The translations under genes were made by a program, and so were the position numbers. Below the pieces are notes generated by a model. That model was not told the origin of the DNA. It searched no databases and worked only from the letters and a program-made list of their open reading frames with translations. This document shows positions 10,761 through 23,081 of a stretch of DNA of 23,081 nt, piece after piece (the first letter of the stretch is position 1; each line of letters starts with the position of its first letter). Where the stretch lies: IMG/VR virus record IMGVR_UViG_2711768067_000018; one strand, given 5' to 3'. This DNA is from a virus (taxonomy: Duplodnaviria; Heunggongvirae; Uroviricota; Caudoviricetes).

Positions 10761-12533
10761 ATGACCATCACCACAGACACCACTCTTTTACACGACCCGC
10801 GTCGTCAGGCGGCGCTGCTGTACTGGCAGGGATTTTCCGTGCCGCAGATTGCCGCCATGTTGCAGATGAAACGCCCGACGGTGCAGAGCTGGAAGCAGCG
10901 CGACGGCTGGGACAGCGTTGCCCCCATCAGCCGTGTCGAAATGAGTCTGGAAGCGCGGCTGACCCAGCTCATCATCAAACCGCAGAAAACCGGCGGTGAC
11001 TTCAAGGAAATTGACCTGCTCGGACGCCAGATTGAACGACTGGCACGGGTCAACCGTTACAGTCAGACCGGCAACGAGGCAGACCTTAATCCGAACGTCG
11101 CTAACCGCAACAAAGGCGGGCGTCGCAAACCGAAAAAGAATTTTTTCAGTGACGAGGCCATCGAAAAGCTGGAGCAGATTTTCTTTGAGCAGTCTTTCGA
11201 ATATCAGTTGCACTGGTATCGCGCCGGGCTTGAGCACCGCATCCGCGATATCCTGAAATCCCGCCAGATTGGCGCGACGTTTTATTTTTCCCGCGAGGCG
11301 CTGCTGCGCGCCCTGAAAACCGGTCATAACCAGATTTTTCTGTCGGCCAGTAAAACGCAGGCGTATGTGTTCCGCGAATACATCATCGCCTTTGCCCGGC
11401 TGGTTGACGTTGACCTGACCGGTGACCCGATTGCCCTGGGCAATAACGGCGCAAAACTGATTTTTCTCGGCACCAACTCCAACACCGCACAGAGCCATAA
11501 CGGCGACCTGTACGTCGACGAGATTTTCTGGATCCCGAATTTTCAGGTACTGCGTAAGGTGGCATCAGGTATGGCCTCACAGAGTCACCTGCGCTCGACC
11601 TATTTCTCCACCCCGTCCACGCTGGCGCACGACGCCTACCCGTTCTGGTCGGGGGAGCTGTTTAACCGGGGACGCGCCAGCGCCGCTGAACGCGTGGAAA
11701 TCGACGTCAGTCATAACGCCCTTGCCGGTGGGCTTCTCTGTGCGGACGGCCAGTGGCGGCAGATTGTCACCATTGAGGACGCGCTGAAAGGCGGCTGCAC
11801 GCTGTTCGACATTGAGCAGCTCAAACGTGAAAACAGCGCCGACGATTTTAAAAACCTGTTCATGTGTGAATTTGTTGACGACAAGGCGTCGGTGTTCCCG
11901 TTCGAGGAGCTGCAACGCTGCATGGTCGACACGCTGGAAGAATGGGAAGACTATGCGCCGTTTGCCGCCAATCCGTTCGGCTCCCGCCCGGTATGGATTG
12001 GTTACGACCCGTCACACCGTGGCGACAGCGCCGGATGCGTGGTACTGGCACCGCCGGTGGTGGCCGGTGGCAAATTCAGAATACTTGAGCGTCACCAGTG
12101 GAAAGGCATGGACTTTGCCACTCAGGCTGAATCCATCCGCAAACTCACTGAAAAATACAACGTCGAATACATCGGAATTGATGCCACCGGCCTCGGTGTC
12201 GGCGTGTTCCAGCTCGTGCGCTCGTTCTATCCCGCCGCGCGCGATATCCGCTACACGCCGGAAATGAAAACCGCAATGGTGCTCAAGGCCAAAGACGTCA
12301 TCCGCCGTGGCTGTCTGGAATATGACGTCAGCGCCACCGACATCACCAGCTCGTTTATGGCTATCCGCAAGACCATGACCAGCAGCGGACGCAGCGCCAC
12401 GTATGAGGCCAGCCGCAGCGAGGAAGCCAGCCACGCCGACCTCGCCTGGGCGACCATGCACGCCCTGTTAAATGAGCCACTCACCGCCGGTATCAGCACC
12501 CCGCTGACATCCACCATTCTGGAGTTTTACTGA
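10761..12533 (+). CDS. P: Terminase ATPase (large) subunit P
   Basis: Start at ATG 10761 (MTITTDTT...), preceded by GCGAGGT; 590 aa, the size of P2 gpP. The ORF-track start at 10731 is a TTG with no RBS. Transcribed divergently from O as in P2. Confidence 0.9.
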   Translation: MTITTDTTLLHDPRRQAALLYWQGFSVPQIAAMLQMKRPTVQSWKQRDGWDSVAPISRVEMSLEARLTQLIIKPQKTGGDFKEIDLLGRQIERLARVNRYSQTGNEADLNPNVANRNKGGRRKPKKNFFSDEAIEKLEQIFFEQSFEYQLHWYRAGLEHRIRDILKSRQIGATFYFSREALLRALKTGHNQIFLSASKTQAYVFREYIIAFARLVDVDLTGDPIALGNNGAKLIFLGTNSNTAQSHNGDLYVDEIFWIPNFQVLRKVASGMASQSHLRSTYFSTPSTLAHDAYPFWSGELFNRGRASAAERVEIDVSHNALAGGLLCADGQWRQIVTIEDALKGGCTLFDIEQLKRENSADDFKNLFMCEFVDDKASVFPFEELQRCMVDTLEEWEDYAPFAANPFGSRPVWIGYDPSHRGDSAGCVVLAPPVVAGGKFRILERHQWKGMDFATQAESIRKLTEKYNVEYIGIDATGLGVGVFQLVRSFYPAARDIRYTPEMKTAMVLKAKDVIRRGCLEYDVSATDITSSFMAIRKTMTSSGRSATYEASRSEEASHADLAWATMHALLNEPLTAGISTPLTSTILEFY

Positions 12534-13567
12534 TGAGCAAGAAAAAAGGGAAAACACCGCAACCTGCGGCAAAAAAAATGACCGCCAGCGCCCCGAAAAT
12601 GGAAGCATTCACCTTTGGCGAGCCGGTACCGGTACTCGACCGCCGTGACATTCTGGATTACGTCGAGTGCATCAGTAACGGCAGATGGTATGAACCACCG
12701 GTCAGCTTTACCGGTCTGGCAAAAAGCCTGCGTGCTGCCGTGCATCACAGCTCACCGATTTACGTCAAACGTAATATTCTGGCCTCAACATTTATCCCGC
12801 ATCCGTGGCTTTCCCAGCAGGATTTCAGCCGCTTTGTGCTGGATTTTCTGGTGTTCGGTAATGCGTTTCTGGAAAAGCGTTACAGCACCACCGGTAAAGT
12901 TATCAGGCTGGAAACCTCACCGGCAAAATATACCCGCCGTGGTGTGGAAGAGGATGTTTACTGGTGGGTGCCGTCCTTCAACGAGCCGACACCTTTCGCG
13001 CCCGGCTCCGTGTTTCATCTGCTGGAGCCGGATATTAATCAGGAGCTGTACGGCCTGCCGGAATATCTCAGCGCCCTTAACTCTGCCTGGCTGAATGAGT
13101 CGGCCACGCTGTTCCGCCGCAAGTATTACGAAAACGGCGCACATGCCGGATACATCATGTACGTCACCGATGCCGTGCAGGATCGCAACGATATCGAAAT
13201 GCTTCGCGAAAACATGGTTAAGTCGAAAGGCCGCAACAACTTTAAAAATCTGTTTCTCTATGCCCCGCAGGGGAAAGCTGACGGCATTAAAATTATCCCG
13301 CTCAGTGAAGTGGCAACGAAGGACGATTTTTTTAATATCAAAAAAGCCAGCGCCGCTGACCTGCTGGACGCGCACCGCATCCCCTTTCAGTTGATGGGCG
13401 GCAAGCCGGAGAACGTCGGGTCACTGGGTGATATTGAGAAAGTGGCAAAGGTCTTTGTCCGCAATGAGCTTATCCCGTTACAGGACAGGATTCGGGAAAT
13501 AAACGGCTGGCTCGGTCAGGAGGTCATCCGCTTTAAAAACTACTCACTGGACACTGACAACGGCTGA
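12533..13567 (+). CDS. Q: Portal protein Q
   Basis: 344-aa ORF, the size of P2 gpQ; its ATG overlaps the P stop (TGATG). Confidence 0.9.
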   Translation: MSKKKGKTPQPAAKKMTASAPKMEAFTFGEPVPVLDRRDILDYVECISNGRWYEPPVSFTGLAKSLRAAVHHSSPIYVKRNILASTFIPHPWLSQQDFSRFVLDFLVFGNAFLEKRYSTTGKVIRLETSPAKYTRRGVEEDVYWWVPSFNEPTPFAPGSVFHLLEPDINQELYGLPEYLSALNSAWLNESATLFRRKYYENGAHAGYIMYVTDAVQDRNDIEMLRENMVKSKGRNNFKNLFLYAPQGKADGIKIIPLSEVATKDDFFNIKKASAADLLDAHRIPFQLMGGKPENVGSLGDIEKVAKVFVRNELIPLQDRIREINGWLGQEVIRFKNYSLDTDNG

Positions 13568-13594: not shown

Positions 13595-13736
13595 ACATCC
13601 CGCCATCACGCCCTCACACGCTCACCACCGCACAAAACACCCCGCAGACACACCAACGCCCCAGCAGGCCGACTAAATGCCATCACGACGCGCTCAGGCG
13701 CTGAAAAAATAAAATCAGCACCACCGCCTGCGCGCA

Positions 13737-13755
13737 GTGCTTTCCCCGCCTCGCC
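13737..13755 (-). other. Candidate cos cohesive-end site (19 nt)
   Basis: GTGCTTTCCCCGCCTCGCC is the reverse complement of GGCGAGGCGGGGAAAGCAC, which I recall as the P2 19-nt cohesive end; it is located just beyond Q as in P2 and is followed by a GC-rich hairpin plus T-run (13755-13778). Confidence 0.55.
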
Positions 13756-13993
13756 CGCCCGCTTCATGGGGCGGTTTTAATGCAGTTGCATAGATACTAT
13801 GGATCCGCACCAGTCCTGACCGCACGCAGCCTGAACGGACATCCCCGACGCATGCAAAAACATTCACTTGTTGCATGCAACGGCTTATTTAATGACAAAT
13901 CAACTTAAATTTACAAAATCCACAGGTATGGATACTTTGCGAACATGATAGGCTTACGAGAATTATCGAGCCTATTTTTGACCGGAGCAATGT

Positions 13994-14935
13994 ATGCAAG
14001 GTAAAGTTGACGAACAGCAATCCAATGATATTGAAGCTGAGTTTGGATACTATCCAGTAGAAGTTAACGTTGAAACTGATGATTTTTCTTTACTTACTTT
14101 ACCCGGTCTAGCGGAAAAAACAAATCTTATAAACAATCACAGAAATGTTATTAACGGTTGGATATACCCAGGAAACCAAGAAGTATATAACCTCAATGGA
14201 GGCATATCCACAATGCCTTTTAGCCAACGAGTATTTGGCTTACCCAAAACACACTCACTAAAATTAAAAAATACATCTTCACTAGAAACTCTCAATTTTG
14301 CTGTGTGGTGTCTGTCTTTTTTCAAAGGGATAAGATTAACAACTACTGATGCCGGTTTTTTAGACGCAACCCCAATAAAACCCAGCAAATTAACTGACTT
14401 TATTCTGGTCAAGTGCTCTGAAAAAGAGGTTATAGAATTAGCACTCAAATACATGTCTAGCGAGACAAAAACCAAACTCGCACCAATAAATATAGCAGCA
14501 ATAGTGCATGCACTATTTTTATCCCAAAACCCACAATACCTTAGCTTCGAAAAATTCCAGTATCTTTATATGGCACTGGATAGTTGCTTTGCTTTAACAT
14601 GGGCAGAAAAGAACAAGTGTACAGAAAAGACTCTAAATCACTCCAGGCGCTTGAAGTGGATCTGCAAAACTTATGGAATACCACGACCATCATGGGTTAC
14701 AGGCAAAAAAAACATTACAAACATCCGCAATGAAAACTTTCATGAAGCTATGTTTCATGGTCAACCACTTGGCTTTACCACTATTAACAATTATCAATAT
14801 GGAGATGACATATTACAACAAATGCAGGCTTTAATTTGCCGATTACTCGTTGCGATTCTTGGTGTTAACGCCCCCGATTACATCACATCGAACGTGAACT
14901 CTCGTGAATATCATTCACTAACATTAAAAATATAA
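13994..14935 (+). CDS. Hypothetical cargo protein (313 aa) with HEPN-like R-N-x3-H motif; candidate abortive-infection RNase
   Basis: Uninterrupted AT-rich ORF with GGAG 6 nt upstream of the ATG; motif RNENFH at residues 245-250 (nt 14726-14743); composition clearly different from the phage core. Confidence 0.6.
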   Translation: MQGKVDEQQSNDIEAEFGYYPVEVNVETDDFSLLTLPGLAEKTNLINNHRNVINGWIYPGNQEVYNLNGGISTMPFSQRVFGLPKTHSLKLKNTSSLETLNFAVWCLSFFKGIRLTTTDAGFLDATPIKPSKLTDFILVKCSEKEVIELALKYMSSETKTKLAPINIAAIVHALFLSQNPQYLSFEKFQYLYMALDSCFALTWAEKNKCTEKTLNHSRRLKWICKTYGIPRPSWVTGKKNITNIRNENFHEAMFHGQPLGFTTINNYQYGDDILQQMQALICRLLVAILGVNAPDYITSNVNSREYHSLTLKI

Positions 14936-14950
14936 AACGACTAAAAATAC

Positions 14951-14975
14951 TCTCCAGTAACAATAAGTACTGGAG
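14951..14975. terminator. Hairpin between convergent cargo genes (likely terminator, mainly for the minus-strand transcript)
   Basis: TCTCCAGTA-N8-TACTGGAGA inverted repeat (9-bp stem); a T-rich tract follows on the minus strand (tattttta). Confidence 0.45.
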
Positions 14976-15017
14976 ATGTATTATCACTAAAACCAATAAA
15001 AAATCACAACTAATGCT

Positions 15018-15617
15018 TTACTTAGATAGTTTGTCTTTAATTATATTCAGAACACCAATTATTAATTCACTGATTGGCGTGGCCAACTCAATAGTATTAG
15101 ATGTCGACTTTGTTCTAAAGTCTTTATCTGTCGGGTGTTGAAATGCTGATTTAAGAAGAGTCAAAAGCAAAGTTAAACCCACACCAAGGATGAATGCAAC
15201 AATAGCTATTAGAGAACTGGCCGATAACCAATCGGTGGATAAACCAGAAATAGATTTTCTAACTTTATTAGTGTCTGAAGATGGTGTTATCCTCTCATCA
15301 GCCATCTTCGGATCCGAAGATAAAGCAGAACATTTTTCTGCTGAAACACAAGTTTGTGTATCTACTTTTTGTGTTATCGCTGCGGCAATACTGCTTTTCG
15401 CTTCCAGCAAGCCATTTCCAACAGCCAAAGCAAAGTTAAGCCCCTGCCATAGAAATGTACAAGCAAAACAAAGCACAACGGCAGAGAGCACTAATCGCAT
15501 ACTTCTACGCTCTATACCATCCCGTCTATCTCGCCTTATAAGGATATCAGGATCTAAATCGCCCTTAGGAGTGGTTCCTTGCTCTGGGGACTGTCCAGAT
15601 AAATCAATATCAGCCAT
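15018..15617 (-). CDS. Hypothetical two-transmembrane-segment protein (199 aa); candidate membrane effector
   Basis: Two hydrophobic stretches (about residues 42-68 and 144-166) flanking a hydrophilic region, charged N-terminus; AT-rich; downstream of and co-oriented with the ImmA-like gene. Confidence 0.65.
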   Translation of the reverse strand: MADIDLSGQSPEQGTTPKGDLDPDILIRRDRRDGIERRSMRLVLSAVVLCFACTFLWQGLNFALAVGNGLLEAKSSIAAAITQKVDTQTCVSAEKCSALSSDPKMADERITPSSDTNKVRKSISGLSTDWLSASSLIAIVAFILGVGLTLLLTLLKSAFQHPTDKDFRTKSTSNTIELATPISELIIGVLNIIKDKLSK

Positions 15618-15620
15618 AAA

Positions 15621-15658
15621 AAAATCACCCTTACATGTACAAACGTAAAGGTGATTTT
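15621..15658 (-). promoter_or_regulatory. Terminator-like hairpin with U-tract that overlaps the RBS of the membrane-protein gene
   Basis: 13 of 14 bp inverted repeat AAAATCACC(C)TTAC / GTAA(A)GGTGATTTT with a 10-nt loop; on the minus strand the 3' arm (containing the GGGTGA Shine-Dalgarno-like sequence) is followed by TTTTTTT and then the ATG at 15617. Confidence 0.5.
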
Positions 15659-15683
15659 AAACAGGTTAAAAGTTAAAGGCTAA

Positions 15684-16169
15684 TTAATAAGCCATTCCTA
15701 AGCTCTTTAAGCGCCAATGCATAGCGGCTTCTGATACATTAAAGATGCTTGCTAATCTCAAAGTGCTATCAATACCTTCTCTGGATACCAATTGACGTAT
15801 AGCAGACTCAGGCATTAACAACTCAGCAGCAAACTTGTTTGCTTCAACCTCACGGTAATCACGAGCACCTGTTGAATAATTCCCGACATTATCCCGATGG
15901 TACTCTCCGTCCTGGGTATGCCCCAGCACATGATGACCTAACTCGTGTGCAACAGTAAAACGTTGACGATTAGAATGTTCACTAGAATCAAAATAAATCC
16001 TATGGACACCCTTTTTGATGACAGCCAGACCGCTTAACCCATCGTTGTTATAAGCCGATTCCTCAAGTGCTTCAACACGAGCACCCCACGCTTTAGCAAG
16101 CTTAAACGGATCGACAGGTAGTCGGCGATCCCAATAGCGGTCAAGCAGTTTTTTAGCTGCATAGCTCAT
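15684..16169 (-). CDS. ImmA/IrrE-family zinc metallopeptidase (HEXXH)
   Basis: 161-aa ORF with HELGHHVLGH (HEXXH) and a downstream EANKFAAELLMP motif typical of ImmA/IrrE (COG2856-type) peptidases; AGGAGG 5 nt upstream of the ATG. Confidence 0.85.
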   Translation of the reverse strand: MSYAAKKLLDRYWDRRLPVDPFKLAKAWGARVEALEESAYNNDGLSGLAVIKKGVHRIYFDSSEHSNRQRFTVAHELGHHVLGHTQDGEYHRDNVGNYSTGARDYREVEANKFAAELLMPESAIRQLVSREGIDSTLRLASIFNVSEAAMHWRLKSLGMAY

Positions 16170-16205
16170 GGTTGCCTCCTACGTTAAAAAAGTTAAGTAT
16201 GCACA

Positions 16206-16234
16206 GCCATATCACAGTTGTTATTTTATGTCAA
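16206..16234 (-). promoter_or_regulatory. Candidate sigma70 promoter for the ImmA-like gene
   Basis: On the minus strand: TTGACA (16234-16229), 17-nt spacer, TGaTATGGC extended -10 (16211-16206), about 35 nt upstream of the start codon. Confidence 0.5.
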
Positions 16235-16890
16235 GGCTGTTTTTCAGCCATTACTATAACACTAATCCACGTTTTCCCATAACATTTTCGACATCATATA
16301 TGCATTCAGTTCTGCATATAGAGCTTATCTTTGCTGATAACACGAGATGAATACGCGCAACCAGCCCACGATTTATAAAAAACCTTATAAATCAGAATAT
16401 TGAGTTAAAAAAACACTAACTACTTGCGCAGCGAGTTGTTAAACCTCAGCGATACTAAAAGAAAATTTCAGAGTCACCGAAGTTTCCACAGAAAACGCAA
16501 CTTAATGATTTTATTGGAATTTATGTCGCTATTTTTAATTACTTGTTTAAATCCGCCATATTGAAACTGTGCATTTCTAGCCACTCACAACTTTAAAAAA
16601 TTTACATTGCTTTCAAGACCTTATCATCCGTAGTCTCTGCTTTTTACTTTGAGCTATATCAAAAAAAGCTCAAACATCCTTGATGCAAAACCAGTATTAC
16701 ACAACATAAAATGCAACCAGAAACAACGACATACTATATGTTGTGTTGTTCAGGTCCTCTGTTCGGTGATATGCCAGATCACTTTGCGTTTAAACAGAGC
16801 ATTATTTCAGGGCAAGACTTCGCTCAATAGTCACTCCGCCTTAGAAGCGCATATATCGGCGGAAATTGCCCTCTGCTTACAGGAGGCGAT

Positions 16891-17004
16891 ATGAAGAAGT
16901 GCTATTACTGCATTCTCGTTCTGGCCCTCTTTGGCTATCCATATGGTAGTCCGAGTGGTTTGTCAGTAAACGTCAGTAATATCCATGTAAGTATTTTTCT
17001 TTAG
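16891..17004 (+). CDS. Small hydrophobic ORF (37 codons), hypothetical
   Basis: AGGAGG with a 4-nt spacer before the ATG; translation MKKCYYCILVLALFGYPYGSPSGLSVNVSNIHVSIFL; followed immediately by a strong terminator. No homology evidence available. Confidence 0.3.
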   Translation: MKKCYYCILVLALFGYPYGSPSGLSVNVSNIHVSIFL

Positions 17005-17016
17005 TATGCTTCAAAC

Positions 17017-17047
17017 AAAAAAACCACCTGCCAGGGTGGTTTTTTTG
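17017..17047. terminator. Bidirectional rho-independent terminator
   Basis: AAAAAAACCACC-TGCCAG-GGTGGTTTTTTT: stem flanked by an A-tract on one side and a T-tract on the other; located between the small plus-strand ORF and the 3' end of minus-strand gene A. Confidence 0.65.
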
Positions 17048-17306
17048 CGCCCGTCATCAATCCGATGAAAGACTAGCAAGACTTCGCTCGAGATGAATTA
17101 TGCTTCGACATAAAGTCACTCGCAATGGTTTTATTAACCGAAATAGATGCTCTTTTATGACTCGAATCAAATAGCTGCCTTCAATTACATGCTAACGATT
17201 CAATACAATTTAGCCTTCTGATTCAACACGCTATTGCTCCTCATCTACCTTAGAGGTGTTTCGCATAATCCATTCAAAGACATATAAAATCACGCTGTAT
17301 TTTTAC

Positions 17307-19583
17307 TCAAATGGATAACAAAAATCCCGGCCAATCATCAGCGACCTGATAAGTGAAAGGTTTCCCGTCATAATTTACGGTCGCGCCACGCGCCAGCGCC
17401 TCAAGCTCCCATCGTTGCGGCCTGATACCGTTCTGAGCGAGATCAACGCGGATACGGGTAATTTGCAATCGTTCCGACCGGGTCAGTCTGGCCGATGGTG
17501 CAATTTCATGCGGTTTTAACGGGCTTCCGTTTCTTTGCTGACGGTTTGGCGTTCTCCGGTCGTGTTTTAATGCGCCCCTGAGCGCCCTCACGACCTCCGG
17601 GTCATTCCATTCGATAACATCGTCATCAACCAGATTAAGCACTGCTGCGGCGTGCTCAGAAGGTGTGGGAGCCGGTAACGAAGTATCACCACCGGTGAGC
17701 TTTCCACAGTTATTGACAGGACTCCGAGGCGCGGCGATGCCGCTTTTTAAAGTCAAAGGCTCAACGACCGGAACTTTCGGCACAATGCGCCAGTCCGTCG
17801 TTCTGGTGATATGAATATGACGCGCGCCGAGATGCGGCGCGTAAATGCCGACCACTCTCTCGACTTCTTCCTCGTACTCGTTAACGTCATCCGACAGACT
17901 ACGGGCGACTCTGACAGTCTGGCAATCGCGCGGAACATTTGCCCCGCCCTGCGCGCTGATATACAGCGCAAAATCACCACTGTCTGCGGCGGCGCGTGCA
18001 GCCTCGACGCGCTCGTCAAACTCATCAGCAATGCTGACGCCGCGAGGCAATTTGCGTAGTTCACGGTAAGCCCCCATTGTCGGCAGGCCAACCGTTTTAA
18101 ATTGCGGAATGCGCCACGTTGACGCCCATGCGGTAACAGCCGCTGCAGTGTCTTTCAACGGCCTGCCGGTGTCGTTATCGAGCTGACCATCCAGTGCATA
18201 GCCGTCGATGTTTTTTGAAATGTATTTCGCGATATATCCCGCAGCACCGCCCCGGTTAAGGTGTTTTGCCTGAAAACGGTTTCGCGCGGCTCCTCTTTCG
18301 TCGCCATCCTCTTTGAGCGCATAGCGACGCATGATTTCGATAATCTGGTTACGCTGGCGTGGATGACAAAAAAGCATCATATGCCAGTGCGGCGTTCCGT
18401 CGTGGTGTGGCTCGACGACTCGCAAACCGTAGACCTGTAAATCATTATCCTTGAATGCCGTGCGCATCAGGCTCCAGATACGGCAGAGATAACGCTGCGC
18501 ATCCTTTGGATTAAATGCCTCATCGTTCCAGCCGTGATTAAGCTGAACGGTTTTACTTTCGCCTTTTCCGACCTGACGTGTCGGGTGATACTTTGACGGC
18601 GCGGTCAGCGTGATAAACATCCCCACATCACCCTCTGCGGCGGCGTAACGCTCAATACCGGCAATGGTGTTCATCAGCTCCATCCGGCGAATTTCAGGAT
18701 TAGAAATACTGCCCATCACCTTACTGATAAGGTCGATGCGCTCGCCGGTTTCCCTGTTTTCAAGGTCACACGATTTAAGAAATTCCAGATTTGCCTGGCG
18801 GCGCGCACGCACATCACGAATGGCGTGTTTACTGGCATAAGGAGAACGGTCTTTATTGACCTCCCCGACAGCTATCAGTAACGCCTCATGCCAGCGCATA
18901 CGCTGGCCTTTAAGCTGATGAGTCCACCACTCATCGTTAAACAGGCGGGCAATGGCAGAATATGCCTGCCTCGTGGTCATCTGTCCTTTACGGTATTTTT
19001 TCCAGTAGAGCGGGGAAATATTGAAAGCACGTGCAGCGCCAGCAACATGACCATACAGGTGAGCCTGCGCCTCATCCGTAAACAGCGATTCTTTTTCACC
19101 ATGCGCATCAACCCATGCATCGCAGAGTTCCTCATACATCATGAAAAGCTGCGATGAGATACGGGCGGCAAACTTTTTCAGCTCCTTGTCATTCATTCCC
19201 GGCAGGCGCGCATAGTGGTCACGCTCTGCCAGAAACAGCAACGACGCGTCGGTGTTCATTTCATGGCGCTGATTCACACGCTCAATGCGCGGCCATAAAC
19301 GACGCTGAAAAGTAGATGTGAGGAAATAAAACCCGTGCACCGGGCTTTTATTGCGCCGGATGTAGTCATAGCGTGAAGTAAACAGCGAGCGCAAAAAGTA
19401 AGGCAGGCGGTTAATCGTGGATAAAACACCTTGCACCTGACGCATCTCGTCACGTGTAAGAGGTCTTTCGCGCCCGACAGCCTCGCGTGGCGCGTTCCAT
19501 GCATAAGCACCGGTAAACGCCTTACCGGTGCCTGCGGTAAATGCTGACGGAGGGACAAAACGCCCGGAGGCTTTAACGGCCAT
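17307..19583 (-). CDS. A: Replication initiation protein A (rolling-circle nickase)
   Basis: Long ORF in the P2 gpA position; start chosen at the ATG at 19583 (MAVKASGRF...), as the ORF-track start at 19625 is a TTG. About 758 aa, close to P2 gpA. Confidence 0.9.
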   Translation of the reverse strand: MAVKASGRFVPPSAFTAGTGKAFTGAYAWNAPREAVGRERPLTRDEMRQVQGVLSTINRLPYFLRSLFTSRYDYIRRNKSPVHGFYFLTSTFQRRLWPRIERVNQRHEMNTDASLLFLAERDHYARLPGMNDKELKKFAARISSQLFMMYEELCDAWVDAHGEKESLFTDEAQAHLYGHVAGAARAFNISPLYWKKYRKGQMTTRQAYSAIARLFNDEWWTHQLKGQRMRWHEALLIAVGEVNKDRSPYASKHAIRDVRARRQANLEFLKSCDLENRETGERIDLISKVMGSISNPEIRRMELMNTIAGIERYAAAEGDVGMFITLTAPSKYHPTRQVGKGESKTVQLNHGWNDEAFNPKDAQRYLCRIWSLMRTAFKDNDLQVYGLRVVEPHHDGTPHWHMMLFCHPRQRNQIIEIMRRYALKEDGDERGAARNRFQAKHLNRGGAAGYIAKYISKNIDGYALDGQLDNDTGRPLKDTAAAVTAWASTWRIPQFKTVGLPTMGAYRELRKLPRGVSIADEFDERVEAARAAADSGDFALYISAQGGANVPRDCQTVRVARSLSDDVNEYEEEVERVVGIYAPHLGARHIHITRTTDWRIVPKVPVVEPLTLKSGIAAPRSPVNNCGKLTGGDTSLPAPTPSEHAAAVLNLVDDDVIEWNDPEVVRALRGALKHDRRTPNRQQRNGSPLKPHEIAPSARLTRSERLQITRIRVDLAQNGIRPQRWELEALARGATVNYDGKPFTYQVADDWPGFLLSI

Positions 19584-19848
19584 ATGAGCCAAAAGCCTCT
19601 GAACAACGCTTGCTGAGTTGCTCAACCTGCGCGTTTAAATCAGCAAAAGATTTTGCGCTTCCGGTCAGAATATCGTGATGCATCAGGCCGGAAACGAGCT
19701 GGCCTAATTTCGGGTAATAACCAACCACCGCCAGCCATTCCTGACCGGCGTTTTTACCGCTTTCCGCTCTCTTTTTCTCGTGGAGAATAAACTGAAAGCT
19801 GTCACTGGTAACGACATAACGTTCGCCAATTTCAATACGAATACTCAT
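19573..19848 (-). CDS. Small early protein (P2 orf83-like), hypothetical
   Basis: 91-aa ORF; its start overlaps the upstream ORF stop and its end overlaps the A start, part of the B-A operon. Confidence 0.7.
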   Translation of the reverse strand: MSIRIEIGERYVVTSDSFQFILHEKKRAESGKNAGQEWLAVVGYYPKLGQLVSGLMHHDILTGSAKSFADLNAQVEQLSKRCSEAFGSYGR

Positions 19849-20658: not shown

Positions 20659-21159
20659 TTAATGCAGATATTGCTCTGGTTTTACCGACGTCAGAATTGT
20701 CGGTGCATACTCAAACAGACTGAATAATTCACGTAATGCACGGAATAAAGCATCACGCCAGTAACATGATTCTTCATTAATTCGCCAGTACGGCTGGTTG
20801 AATTCTTTTTCTGTCAGTCGTGCGTGCATAAATAAAGTACGTCGCTGGCTGACTGTTAAAAAACTAATATATGCATACTCACTTGCACCGACCTGACGGC
20901 GTTTTGAGAATGCCCCACGCAATTCATCAATTGCACAAACCAGCCGTTCACGTTCGACGTCGTTCATTTCTTCAAAACGCATCGTTGCGTGACGCTGTTT
21001 TAACTGTGCATGAAAGCAAACCGTTAGCCGTTCGCGCTCCATCATCTGATTATAATAATCACATGTATCCTGCCAGCGAGGGACGGCAAGATGCTTGCCA
21101 ATTATCCGGCGCATAGCTGCTGGCTGTTTTTCAACGAGATTGAGCGTCATCACTGTCAT
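20659..21159 (-). CDS. B: Replication protein B (helicase-loader-like)
   Basis: Start at Met3 of the ORF-track translation, preceded by GGAGGG with a 7-nt spacer; gives 166 aa, the size of P2 gpB. Confidence 0.85.
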   Translation of the reverse strand: MTVMTLNLVEKQPAAMRRIIGKHLAVPRWQDTCDYYNQMMERERLTVCFHAQLKQRHATMRFEEMNDVERERLVCAIDELRGAFSKRRQVGASEYAYISFLTVSQRRTLFMHARLTEKEFNQPYWRINEESCYWRDALFRALRELFSLFEYAPTILTSVKPEQYLH

Positions 21160-21353
21160 TTCCATACCCTCCGGCTTTTCAGAAAGGTCAGAGCCTTTTT
21201 TAACGGACTCTGTTTTTTGGTGCGGATAATGATTCCCTTACGCCCCTTACCGTGGGTGATGGTGAAGTCAATCGCCCTGGGGCTTTCGTTACGCAATAAC
21301 TGAGCAATACAACGCGGCTCATTCATAATCACAACCCCATCCACAAAAGCCAT
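21156..21353 (-). CDS. Small basic protein between cox and B (P2 orf78-like position), hypothetical
   Basis: Lys/Arg-rich ORF whose stop overlaps the B start; an alternative start at 21326 lies just after the cox stop. Short and uncertain. Confidence 0.4.
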   Translation of the reverse strand: MAFVDGVVIMNEPRCIAQLLRNESPRAIDFTITHGKGRKGIIIRTKKQSPLKKALTFLKSRRVWK

Positions 21354-21601
21354 GCATCACGCTGTTCAACCGGTCGGTTATAAAACGCCTCACGTACAGC
21401 GCGATTAAACTCAGGAATGAAAACCCATTTTTCACCGGCACGAGCCTTCGGTTTGCAAGGATCACGCAATTCAATAATTGGTAATTTATTTGCCTTCACC
21501 ATTTCACTGACGGCTGTCTTTGGCTTCCCTAATAAATCAGCAAATTTATCCACATGAACCGCATCAAGCGGATACTGAATCACATAATTTTCAGCGTCCA
21601 T
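21329..21601 (-). CDS. cox: Cox-like excisionase / lytic-switch regulator
   Basis: About 90 aa from the ATG at 21601 (GAGGG upstream); first gene of the early operon, divergent from C, with a conserved W..W C-terminal region like P2 Cox. Confidence 0.8.
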   Translation of the reverse strand: MDAENYVIQYPLDAVHVDKFADLLGKPKTAVSEMVKANKLPIIELRDPCKPKARAGEKWVFIPEFNRAVREAFYNRPVEQRDAWLLWMGL

Positions 21602-21677
21602 ATATGGTACCCTCATAGGATCCAGCCCTTTCTAAACCACTCAAAACCGTTTAGATGCTGGTTTATTCTCAAATCAA

Positions 21678-21726
21678 TGGAACCTATATAGGTTCCAGTT
21701 TTGAGGGAATTTAGTCCCTATATAGG
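21678..21726. promoter_or_regulatory. Candidate operator palindromes in the cox-C switch region
   Basis: Perfect 20-bp palindrome TGGAACCTATATAGGTTCCA (21678-21697) and a second copy of its core CCTATATAGG (21717-21726), both in the 136-bp gap between the divergent cox and C start codons; each core contains a TATATA -10-like hexamer. Confidence 0.5.
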
Positions 21727-21737
21727 CACCATGTCAA

Positions 21738-22031
21738 ATGAAATTAAGCGAAAAGATTAAGGCCTTGCGTGAGGCTGAAGGGCTAAGCCAATCAAAATTC
21801 TGTGAAATCATAGAGTTACCGCTAAGCACACTTAAAAAATATGAAGGAGGAAACTTTGAACCCGGTGGCACAGCTTTGCTAAAAATCACTATGCATCCCA
21901 CATTCCAAAAATATGCTCTATGGCTTATGACAGATAAAACCGCGCCGGACGCAGGACAAATCGCACCGGCTCTCGCGCACATTGGGCCAGAGTCAACAGA
22001 GTCCAACCACTCCGCGAAAAGGATTGGCTAA
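21738..22031 (+). CDS. C: Immunity repressor C (HTH)
   Basis: 97-aa ORF with a helix-turn-helix-like segment (LSQSKFCEIIELPLSTLKKYE) and a GQIAPALAH C-terminal region resembling P2 C; located between cox and int. Confidence 0.8.
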   Translation: MKLSEKIKALREAEGLSQSKFCEIIELPLSTLKKYEGGNFEPGGTALLKITMHPTFQKYALWLMTDKTAPDAGQIAPALAHIGPESTESNHSAKRIG

Positions 22032-22100
22032 CTCTATATAAAGATTACATTTTCACCATTTGCTACCAAGATGGTGAATACAGCGCCGGAGGGCTTTCTT

Positions 22101-23081
22101 ATGGCAATTAAGAAGCTCGATGATGGTCGCTATGAAGTGGACATTAGACCTCGCGGTCGCGACGGAAAACGCATCCGCAGGAAATTCGAAAGAAAAGCTG
22201 AAGCACTAGCATTTGAGCGATACACAATCGCCAATGCCAGTCAGAAAGAATGGGGAGGCCAGCGAGCAGACCGCCGGACTTTGAGTGAGTTGCTGGACAT
22301 CTGGTGGAAATATCACGGGCAAAACCACGAGCATGGAACAAAAGAGTTTAATCATCTACTCAAAACCATCAGCGGCATAGGTGATATACCAGTGAGCAGG
22401 ATGAGCAAAAGGGCTTTGATGGATTATCGTTCCATGCGACTACGTGATGGTATCAGTGCCGCAACGATAAACCGTGACATGTACCGATTATCCGGCATGT
22501 TCACAAAATTAATTCAATTGGATGAATTTTCCGGGCAACACCCAATTCACGGACTGCCGCCACTGGCGGAGGCCAACCCTGAAATGACGTTCCTGGAAAA
22601 AGCAGAAATCGAAAAACTGTTAAATGTTTTGGCTGGTGATGACTTACTTGTCGCGCTTTTATGTCTGAGCACCGGAGGAAGATGGACGGAAGTTGCCACG
22701 CTAAAACCAGCACAGATTACAAATTGCAGGGTTACCTTCCTGAAAACCAAAAACGGTAAAAAGCGAACCGTGCCGATTTCTGAGGAACTGGAGAAAAAAG
22801 TTAAAGAGGAGGCCAGCGCCAAATTATTCAAAGTTGATTATGAGAAATTTTGCGGGATTTTACGCAGAGTGAAACCTGATATACCACCCAATCAGGCAAC
22901 CCACATCCTGCGGCATACATTCGCAAGCCATTTCATGATGAATGGGGGCAATATAATCGCACTGCAACAGATTCTGGGACATGCGAGCATTCAGCAGACG
23001 ATGGCCTATGCGCACCTTGCGCCTGACTATCTGCAAAATGCCGTCGCTCTGAATCCACTAAAAGGCGGAGTGACGTTATAA
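22101..23081 (+). CDS. int: Tyrosine integrase (P2 Int family)
   Basis: Start at ATG 22101 (MAIKKLDDGRYEVD...), preceded by GGAGGG with a 7-nt spacer; C-terminal catalytic region with H-x-L-R-H and a YAH tyrosine motif; the stop codon is the last 3 nt of the window. Confidence 0.9.
   Translation: MAIKKLDDGRYEVDIRPRGRDGKRIRRKFERKAEALAFERYTIANASQKEWGGQRADRRTLSELLDIWWKYHGQNHEHGTKEFNHLLKTISGIGDIPVSRMSKRALMDYRSMRLRDGISAATINRDMYRLSGMFTKLIQLDEFSGQHPIHGLPPLAEANPEMTFLEKAEIEKLLNVLAGDDLLVALLCLSTGGRWTEVATLKPAQITNCRVTFLKTKNGKKRTVPISEELEKKVKEEASAKLFKVDYEKFCGILRRVKPDIPPNQATHILRHTFASHFMMNGGNIIALQQILGHASIQQTMAYAHLAPDYLQNAVALNPLKGGVTL

Follow-up and report, generated by a model that had tools for sequence, protein, structure and literature searches.

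Paired palindromic sites as candidate operators of the repressor C in the cox-C spacer of an L-413C-type prophage

Results

The DNA analysed here, referred to as the window, is a stretch of 23,081 nucleotides from a virus of the Caudoviricetes (IMG/VR record IMGVR_UViG_2711768067_000018), and its right end is the early and immunity region of a P2-family (Peduovirus) prophage. The minus strand carries the replication gene A (17307-19625), B (20659-21165) and, between B and cox, orf78, all three assigned from the ORF layout. It also carries cox (21329-21601), which codes for the 90-aa Cox protein, an excisionase and repressor of the repressor promoter Pc (Pfam Phage_Cox, 1e-23; structure 4LHF, 3.8e-20). 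On the plus strand lie C (21738-22031), which codes for the 97-aa immunity repressor, and int (22101-23081, 326 aa by its RefSeq start), with Int_N and Phage_integrase domains. C has an HTH_3 domain and aligned end to end with the P2 C structures 2L49 and 2XCJ (E = 1.9e-21, residues 3-97). The int ORF opens at 22071, and the RefSeq start, taken from identical prophages, lies 69 nt past the C stop codon. The cox ATG is at 21601 on the minus strand, the same start that RefSeq gives for the identical gene, and it is backed by the WPhi alignment and by a GAGGG Shine-Dalgarno sequence 8 nt upstream. The segment 21602-21737 coincides exactly with the spacer from this start to the C start (21738, plus strand), and this developmental switch region is 136 bp long with 40% G+C. 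The gene order, int-C on one side and cox-orf78-B-A on the other, is the annotated order in P2, WPhi and L-413C. The initial annotation had read the divergent cox-C region as a lysis-lysogeny switch, and both the gene layout and the Pfam and structure matches bear this out.

The cox-C region has been sequenced many times before. Of 5426 complete E. coli genomes, 420 carry the spacer at 95% identity or more, in each case on the chromosome and as a single copy. Among phage records, 18 have it at 99% identity or more, and the 801-bp cox-to-C segment likewise reaches this level in 18 (e.g. L-413C, P24B2, FSL SP-004, R18C, P2_AC1 and vB_YpM_50). The C/Cox pair, which the initial annotation had singled out as unlike that of P2, does differ from P2 but is not new, as it is 99-100% identical to the pair of L-413C and of many phages and prophages. 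We conclude that the region represents a common immunity type. About 8% of complete E. coli genomes carry this L-413C-like type, which makes it relevant to superinfection exclusion and to interactions with satellites (P4).

The paired repeats that had been reported in this spacer, a perfect 20-bp palindrome and a second copy of its 10-bp core 34 bp away, both with TATATA, are present and lie far beyond chance expectation. The palindrome (TGGAACCTAT joined to ATAGGTTCCA, 21678-21697) is the longest in the whole window. Perfect palindromes of at least 20 bp arose in 9 of 300 dinucleotide-preserving shuffles of the 23-kb window and in 1 of 5000 such shuffles of the 136-bp spacer alone. The core, CCTATATAGG, is a 10-mer that is its own reverse complement; it is found at 21683-21692 and at 21717-21726, 34 bp start to start, and TATATA is present inside both copies. 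These two matches were the only ones in the 23-kb window, even with one mismatch allowed (expected 0.19), and two or more matches occurred in none of 100 shuffles. A chance origin of the repeats is ruled out by these shuffles. The second core is also the centre of a dyad, an imperfect palindrome (TAGTCCCTAT joined to ATAGGCACCA, 21712-21731) that matches at 16 of 20 positions, with 8 of the 10 arm positions complementary and the mismatches in poorly matching outer arms. We refer to the site at 21712-21731 as O1 and to the perfect palindrome as O2. The four arms of the two sites gave the consensus TGGnnCCTAT.

A consensus scan of 21300-22100 found a single sigma-70-like site, TTGACA-18-TAAATT on the minus strand, which matches 10 of 12 hexamer positions and which we assign, from its sequence, as the putative early promoter Pe, firing toward cox. 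The -35 hexamer TTGACA (21732-21737) abuts the C start codon, and the -10 hexamer TAAATT (21708-21713) follows after an 18-bp spacer. In an alignment of the window with WPhi, P37 and SW3, TAAATT lines up with TATATT of the other three phages, and the column block GTCAAATG is invariant. A TTGACA that abuts or overlaps the C start is also the annotated Pe -35 of P2, and it falls within the annotated Pe of WPhi. The Pe oligonucleotide described for WPhi reads TTGACA-GTAACC-TATTGGTGAC (O1)-T-TATATT (PMC1904263). The TATATA hexamers pointed out in the initial annotation are probably not promoter -10 elements; the Pe -10 is TAAATT (21713-21708), and both hexamers are inside the operator-like sites.

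The same scan found no plus-strand sigma-70-like site in 21300-22100 that could be Pc. Two hand-picked candidates, ATCACA-18-TATGGT inside the cox start and TTTATT-17-TATATA, were both rejected as weak. The Pc of WPhi is annotated beside cox, more than 100 bp from C, and is itself non-consensus; the 19-bp segment that carries its -35 is absent from both the window and P37. By homology with WPhi, Pc of the window is expected next to cox, about 70-100 bp from the two sites. The zone 21631-21675 contains CTAAAC/GTTTAG/TAAACC motifs with a phasing of about 10 bp (inverted repeats I8 and I9), and we regard it as a candidate zone for Cox binding and for Pc. The P2 cox-box is TTAAA(G/C)NC(A/C), repeated at 10-11 bp spacing over Pc (PMC3936717), and the phased motifs of the window may be Cox boxes by resemblance.

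When placed relative to Pe, the two sites occupy the positions of the operators of WPhi. The 20-mer of O1 spans the Pe spacer, from the edge of the -35 into the -10, and O2 lies just past the Pe transcription start, at about +4 to +23. WPhi has half-sites of 10 bp on either side of the Pe -10, with 34 bp between their centres (PMC1904268). The alignment with WPhi, P37 and SW3 placed the two cores of the window at the positions of WPhi O1 and O2, within a skeleton, GGAAT(A/T)TA-GTC...GTCAAATG, that is invariant across all four. The earlier proposal of operators lying over face-to-face promoters therefore holds for Pe, which both sites overlap, and fails for Pc, which by WPhi homology adjoins cox.

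We also searched with the full 20-bp consensus. Allowing up to three mismatches, TGGNNCCTATATAGGNNCCA matched three sites in the window, all within the spacer (expected 0.05 per window): O1, O2 and a weak third site, TGGTACCCTCATAGGATCCA, at 21605-21624. The third site is centred 73 bp from the O2 centre and overlaps the cox Shine-Dalgarno sequence as well as the region that corresponds to the WPhi Pc -10. A third operator, O3, is only speculation here, because P37 has nearly the same sequence at this position despite its different operators, and the operator-like resemblance may be incidental. If real, such a site could let C act at Pc or cox. Beyond the spacer, searches with the 10-mer and with the 20-bp consensus found no distal copies in the 23-kb window.

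Across related switches, the repeated word at the O1 and O2 positions changes together with the recognition helix of C. In WPhi, P37 and SW3, the helix GIALGT(V/L)KNYE(S/G)GH goes with GTCA..AA-type sites, and in the window the helix ELPLSTLKKYEGGN goes with CCTATATAGG sites. Other words occupy these positions in T5282H/SEN5, with ATGGTAGAGAT twice at 33 bp, and in 569R5, with GGTTATCTT repeats at 33 bp. In Yersinia phage P37 (440-490), whose C has a WPhi-like recognition helix, two GTCATTAA half-sites flank the Pe -10 as inverted copies 24 bp apart rather than as direct repeats. Because the P37 half-sites are inverted, half-site orientation may not be fixed in this repressor family.

The immunity type can be read from both the proteins and the sites. 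Karlsson et al. 2006 reportedly distinguish seven immunity classes, and Garcia et al. 2008 are said to have described the L-413C genome. Within an immunity group, C proteins are at least 95% identical (PMC3448106). We found that C of the window is 43% identical to C of P2, 56% to WPhi, 66% to P37 and 100% to L-413C, while Cox is 41% identical to Cox of P2, 82% to WPhi and 99% to L-413C; the earlier observation that both proteins are unlike P2 over much of their length is in line with these alignments. Five residues of P2 C have been proposed to read bases, Y31, T33, S35, Y36 and R41 (PMC2995052). Four of the five differ in the window, where Y31, S35, Y36 and R41 are replaced by L, K, K and N. 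The window falls in the L-413C-type group, with an identical C and a spacer that departs from L-413C at 4 of 136 positions and from other members at 0-2. It falls outside the WPhi group (class III), with C at 56% and no GTCACCAATA in the spacer, and outside the P2 group (class I), with C at 43% and no ATCTAAAC pair 22 bp apart. A 186-type CI/Apl switch does not fit a 97-aa repressor with a single HTH and a window without distal sites. The layout is that of a P2-type switch: an HTH repressor, a divergent Cox, Pe near the C start, and two repeated half-sites flanking the -10. The half-sites are not the non-palindromic ones that describe the P2 family, and the two copies nonetheless count as direct repeats.

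The spacer has a single copy of the P2 O1 octamer GTTTAGAT, at 21649-21656; it is oriented the other way and lies some 50 bp from the Pe -10. It belongs to the phased CTAAAC/GTTTAG/TAAACC motifs and has no direct partner at 22 bp. Its last base varies, and 34 of 44 natural copies have C there. P2 C does not bind a single half-site (PMC1904263). We therefore rejected cross-immunity with P2 through this octamer, a single copy with the wrong orientation and position and a polymorphic end, for a repressor that needs more than one half-site. Because C and Cox are only 43% and 41% identical to those of P2, four of five proposed base-readers differ, and immunity groups need at least 95% identity in C, the sequences make an immunity specificity distinct from that of P2 very likely, as the initial annotation had suggested, and the same holds for WPhi.

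We then compared natural copies of the spacer, drawn from 36 IMG/VR contigs, one GTDB genome and seven E. coli chromosomes, which left 43 full-length copies after one copy with a deletion was set aside. Neither core and no position of O2 varied among the 43. The only operator variants were two singletons in the outer right arm of O1 (21727 and 21730). In one copy, G21698T lengthens the O2 palindrome to 22 bp. The copy set aside, IMGVR_UViG_2534681866_000002, has lost a 24-bp stretch that held the right half of O2 and the Pe -10 (junction ...GGAACCTATAT/TAGTCCCTATATAGG...), and it is presumably a locked-in prophage. A further case of a damaged Pe is a 2.5-kb prophage remnant in E. coli GZ2408P (NZ_CM172482.1, 11387-13848), located between fieF and cpxP, the chromosomal site used by this prophage type. 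It keeps only a hypothetical gene, ogr, the spacer, C and int, with the cox start fused to ogr, and its A21708G change destroys the final T of the Pe -10.

L-413C, which serves in the diagnosis of plague, is a clear-plaque or lytic mutant of the temperate phage L-413 (PMC3448106; PMC2893161). Positions 1803-1938 of its genome (AY251033) correspond to 21602-21737 of the window, and its C is identical despite the lytic phenotype. Against these 43 copies, three changes are private to the L-413C spacer. G21680T alters the conserved TGG of O2, G21726T falls within the core of O1, and A21709G replaces the fifth base of the Pe -10 hexamer. A fourth difference, T21656C, is the majority allele, and it is the window that has the less common T. 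The L-413C variants of O1 and O2 had no exact match in IMG/VR, and the O2 variant had none among GTDB representatives. The wild-type O1 had exact matches in 36 IMG/VR contigs and the wild-type O2 in one GTDB representative, which makes the GTDB representatives a weak control, since the wild-type site is there only once. These correlative changes fit an operator-constitutive (vir-type) mutant and suggest a plausible basis for the clear plaques. The probability that two of three private changes fall by chance in the roughly 32 of 136 positions concerned is about 0.14, and the argument, correlative as it is, is weakened by an accompanying P-to-L change in Cox of L-413C. Yersinia phage HQ103 (NC_070908, 501-686), with a spacer identical to that of the window, has a C truncated to 62 codons and a cox-to-C segment that is 7 bp shorter, a different route to a lytic phenotype within the same immunity group.

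Discussion

We consider it highly probable that the repeats are operators O1 and O2 through which C represses Pe in an L-413C-type switch. They are the best C operator candidates because of the family homology of C, the exclusion of chance, the WPhi positions of the sites, the change of the repeated word with the recognition helix, and the changes in L-413C. The reading is built on sequence features, homology, positional equivalence and natural variation, from which we infer binding, stoichiometry and repression. In the model we propose, Pe would fire leftward into cox-orf78-B-A. C, a dimer by homology with P2 C, would bind the two sites 34 bp apart, and Pe would be shut off by this pair of dimers, which probably contact each other and bend the DNA, as happens in P2 and WPhi. 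With O1 across the Pe spacer and O2 at about +4 to +23, the core promoter would be blanketed when both sites are occupied. Shutting off Pe would in turn give superinfection immunity specific to this operator sequence. Cox, made from Pe, would be expected to bind in the left half of the spacer and to repress Pc.

How C would read these sites is a separate question. In the published account of the P2 C family, the sites are non-palindromic direct repeats, and of the two subunits of a dimer one is specific and the other non-specific (PMC2995052). The direct repeats that the initial annotation had attributed to P2 C are documented (PMC2995052, PMC1904268). The contrast that it drew, palindromes here against direct repeats in P2, is sound in that each site of the window has dyad symmetry. 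It is less sharp than proposed, as two copies of a self-complementary 10-mer also form a direct repeat, with the length and spacing of WPhi. Sites with the dyad TGGnnCCTAT-ATAGGnnCCA would allow equivalent contacts by both subunits, contacts that the non-palindromic half-sites of P2 and WPhi would rule out. The combined proposition, that each half-site is a full dyad operator read symmetrically by one C dimer and that L-413C is lytic through G21680T and G21726T, is one we advance tentatively, at slightly under an even chance. On the published account of direct-repeat reading in the family (PMC2995052), C may have no use for the outer arms of the palindromes. The palindromy of O2 could also serve another purpose, because the dyads that WPhi, P37 and SW3 have at this position are built from arms, AAAAGGT/ACCTTTT, that do not have the half-site sequence.

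One such purpose would be an RNA hairpin. The 20-bp palindrome might act mainly as a stabilising 5' stem-loop of the Pe (cox) transcript or as part of a structured leader of the C-int (Pc) transcript, with C reading the 10-bp repeats only, a role that would be compatible with the operator role and not exclusive of it. An extended dyad centred on O2 (21657-21715, plus strand; inverted repeat I1) has 23-nt arms that are 74% complementary. The plus-strand RNA of 21655-21715 folded at -21.4 kcal/mol (z = -5.25), with z = -3.3 for the minus strand. In the Pe transcript the hairpin would be at the extreme 5' end, and in the C-int transcript it would be part of the leader. A dyad just downstream of the Pe -10 is also present in WPhi (TCAAAAGGT/ACCTTTTGA), P37, SW3 and 569R5. 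The folding z-scores were -2.2 for WPhi and -3.5 for P37, and one arm position differs between these two with a compensating change. The arms of WPhi, P37 and SW3 are nevertheless conserved in sequence (AAAAGGT) with little covariation, which leaves RNA pairing as only a candidate, and a DNA palindrome automatically gives a hairpin on either strand. A terminator-like scan flagged the palindrome on the minus strand, but the hairpin has no T-run adequate for termination. A hairpin would also leave unexplained the second copy at 34 bp, the partial dyad of O1 and the L-413C substitution in O1, and we regard it as a rather unlikely main function of the palindrome.

Two further alternatives take the palindromes as something other than C sites. 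If the TATATA hexamers were the -10 elements of face-to-face promoters, the palindromes would be promoter architecture and not repressor sites. TATATA does resemble TATAAT, and a weak TTTATT precedes the O2 TATATA by 17 bp on the plus strand. Yet TATATA lacks the conserved final T, and the single promoter-like site in 21300-22100 is Pe, a homologue of the promoters mapped or annotated as Pe in WPhi and P2, and it has O1 in its spacer. The annotated position of WPhi Pc, next to cox and more than 100 bp from C, likewise speaks against a -10 role, and we consider this reading very improbable. It is still harder to credit that the palindromes bind Cox, IHF or another host factor while C binds elsewhere in the spacer. 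Cox-family proteins do have multiple binding sites in such spacers (PMC3936717), and this spacer holds other repeats, CTAAAC/GTTTAG at 21631-21656 and CTCAAAAC/GTTTTGAG. Cox boxes, though, lie over Pc as repeats of about 9 bp with a phasing of 10-11 bp, whereas the palindromes are 20 bp long and lie over Pe, and the palindrome sequence is absent from WPhi although its Cox is 82% identical. The other repeats do not lie around the Pe core promoter, where all three operators located as of 2007, those of P2, P2 Hy dis and WPhi only, are found (PMC1904268).

The region can be set beside known switches. That of WPhi (AJ245959; operators mapped, PMC1904263, PMC1904268) has the same Pe -35 abutting the C start, O1 in the Pe spacer, O2 downstream of the transcription start, 10-bp half-sites 34 bp apart, a dyad around O2 and a Cox that is 82% identical. 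It differs in its half-site, GTCACCAATA rather than the self-complementary CCTATATAGG, in a C that is 56% identical with a different recognition helix, and in a spacer of 152 bp rather than 136 bp, the segment with the WPhi Pc -35 being missing here. WPhi and L-413C also have a common attP core (PMC3448106). The P2 switch (NC_001895; C 2XCJ, Cox 4LHF) has a homologous C and Cox, convergent Pe and Pc, and two C half-sites flanking the Pe -10, but these are 8-bp non-palindromic ATCTAAAC repeats 22 bp apart, unlike the 10-bp palindromic cores of the window. The dyad symmetry of each individual site is the real difference from both P2 and WPhi. In the P2-like phage 186, lytic and lysogenic promoters are also convergent and CI reads inverted repeats (PMC1904263), but its CI has 196 aa and two domains and acts at distal operators, whereas C of the window is of the 97-aa P2 type.

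The arrangement that we propose has a counterpart in C.Esp1396I, a small HTH dimer cited as structurally similar to P2 C (PMC2995052). It binds directly repeated palindromic sites with one dimer per repeat and forms a tetramer on DNA. It differs in being a restriction-modification controller with sites 15 bp apart centre to centre. The L-413C (AY251033) group, which includes P24B2, FSL SP-004, R18C, P2_AC1, vB_YpM_50, 'P2' KC618326 and HQ103, is the same element as the window, with spacers that are 97-100% identical. Relative to the lytic L-413C with its operator changes and to HQ103 with its truncated C, the window is the wild-type temperate version.

The element is already known and would hold no surprise for a P2 specialist; what it modestly adds is that its sites are dyad-symmetric, together with the L-413C operator mutations. 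If one dimer does read each site symmetrically, C would read palindromes within the family of P2 C, a textbook oddity said to bind non-palindromic direct repeats as a symmetric dimer, and the O2-position dyads in WPhi, P37, T5282H and 569R5 would hint at wider dyad recognition than the literature states. An abundant natural relative with WPhi geometry and self-complementary sites offers a clean test of one dimer per half-site, for which the L-413C point mutations are ready-made operator mutants.

Elsewhere in the window, perfect palindromes of 18 bp were found inside ORFs of an AT-rich cargo island, AATAGTGCATGCACTATT at 14500-14517 and ATCTTCGGATCCGAAGAT at 15304-15321; palindromes of at least 18 bp occurred in only 29 of 300 window shuffles. 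The island (13600-17300) lies between the portal gene Q (12533-13567) and the replication gene A, at the location of the old/tin hotspot in P2. It codes for a 313-aa protein (13994-14935, plus strand) and a 199-aa protein (15018-15617, minus strand), neither with a Pfam or PADLOC match, and for a 161-aa Peptidase_M78/ImmA-IrrE-like protein (15684-16169, minus strand; Pfam 3.8e-21; PADLOC capP 1e-30, RmrA). The island may be anti-phage defence cargo.
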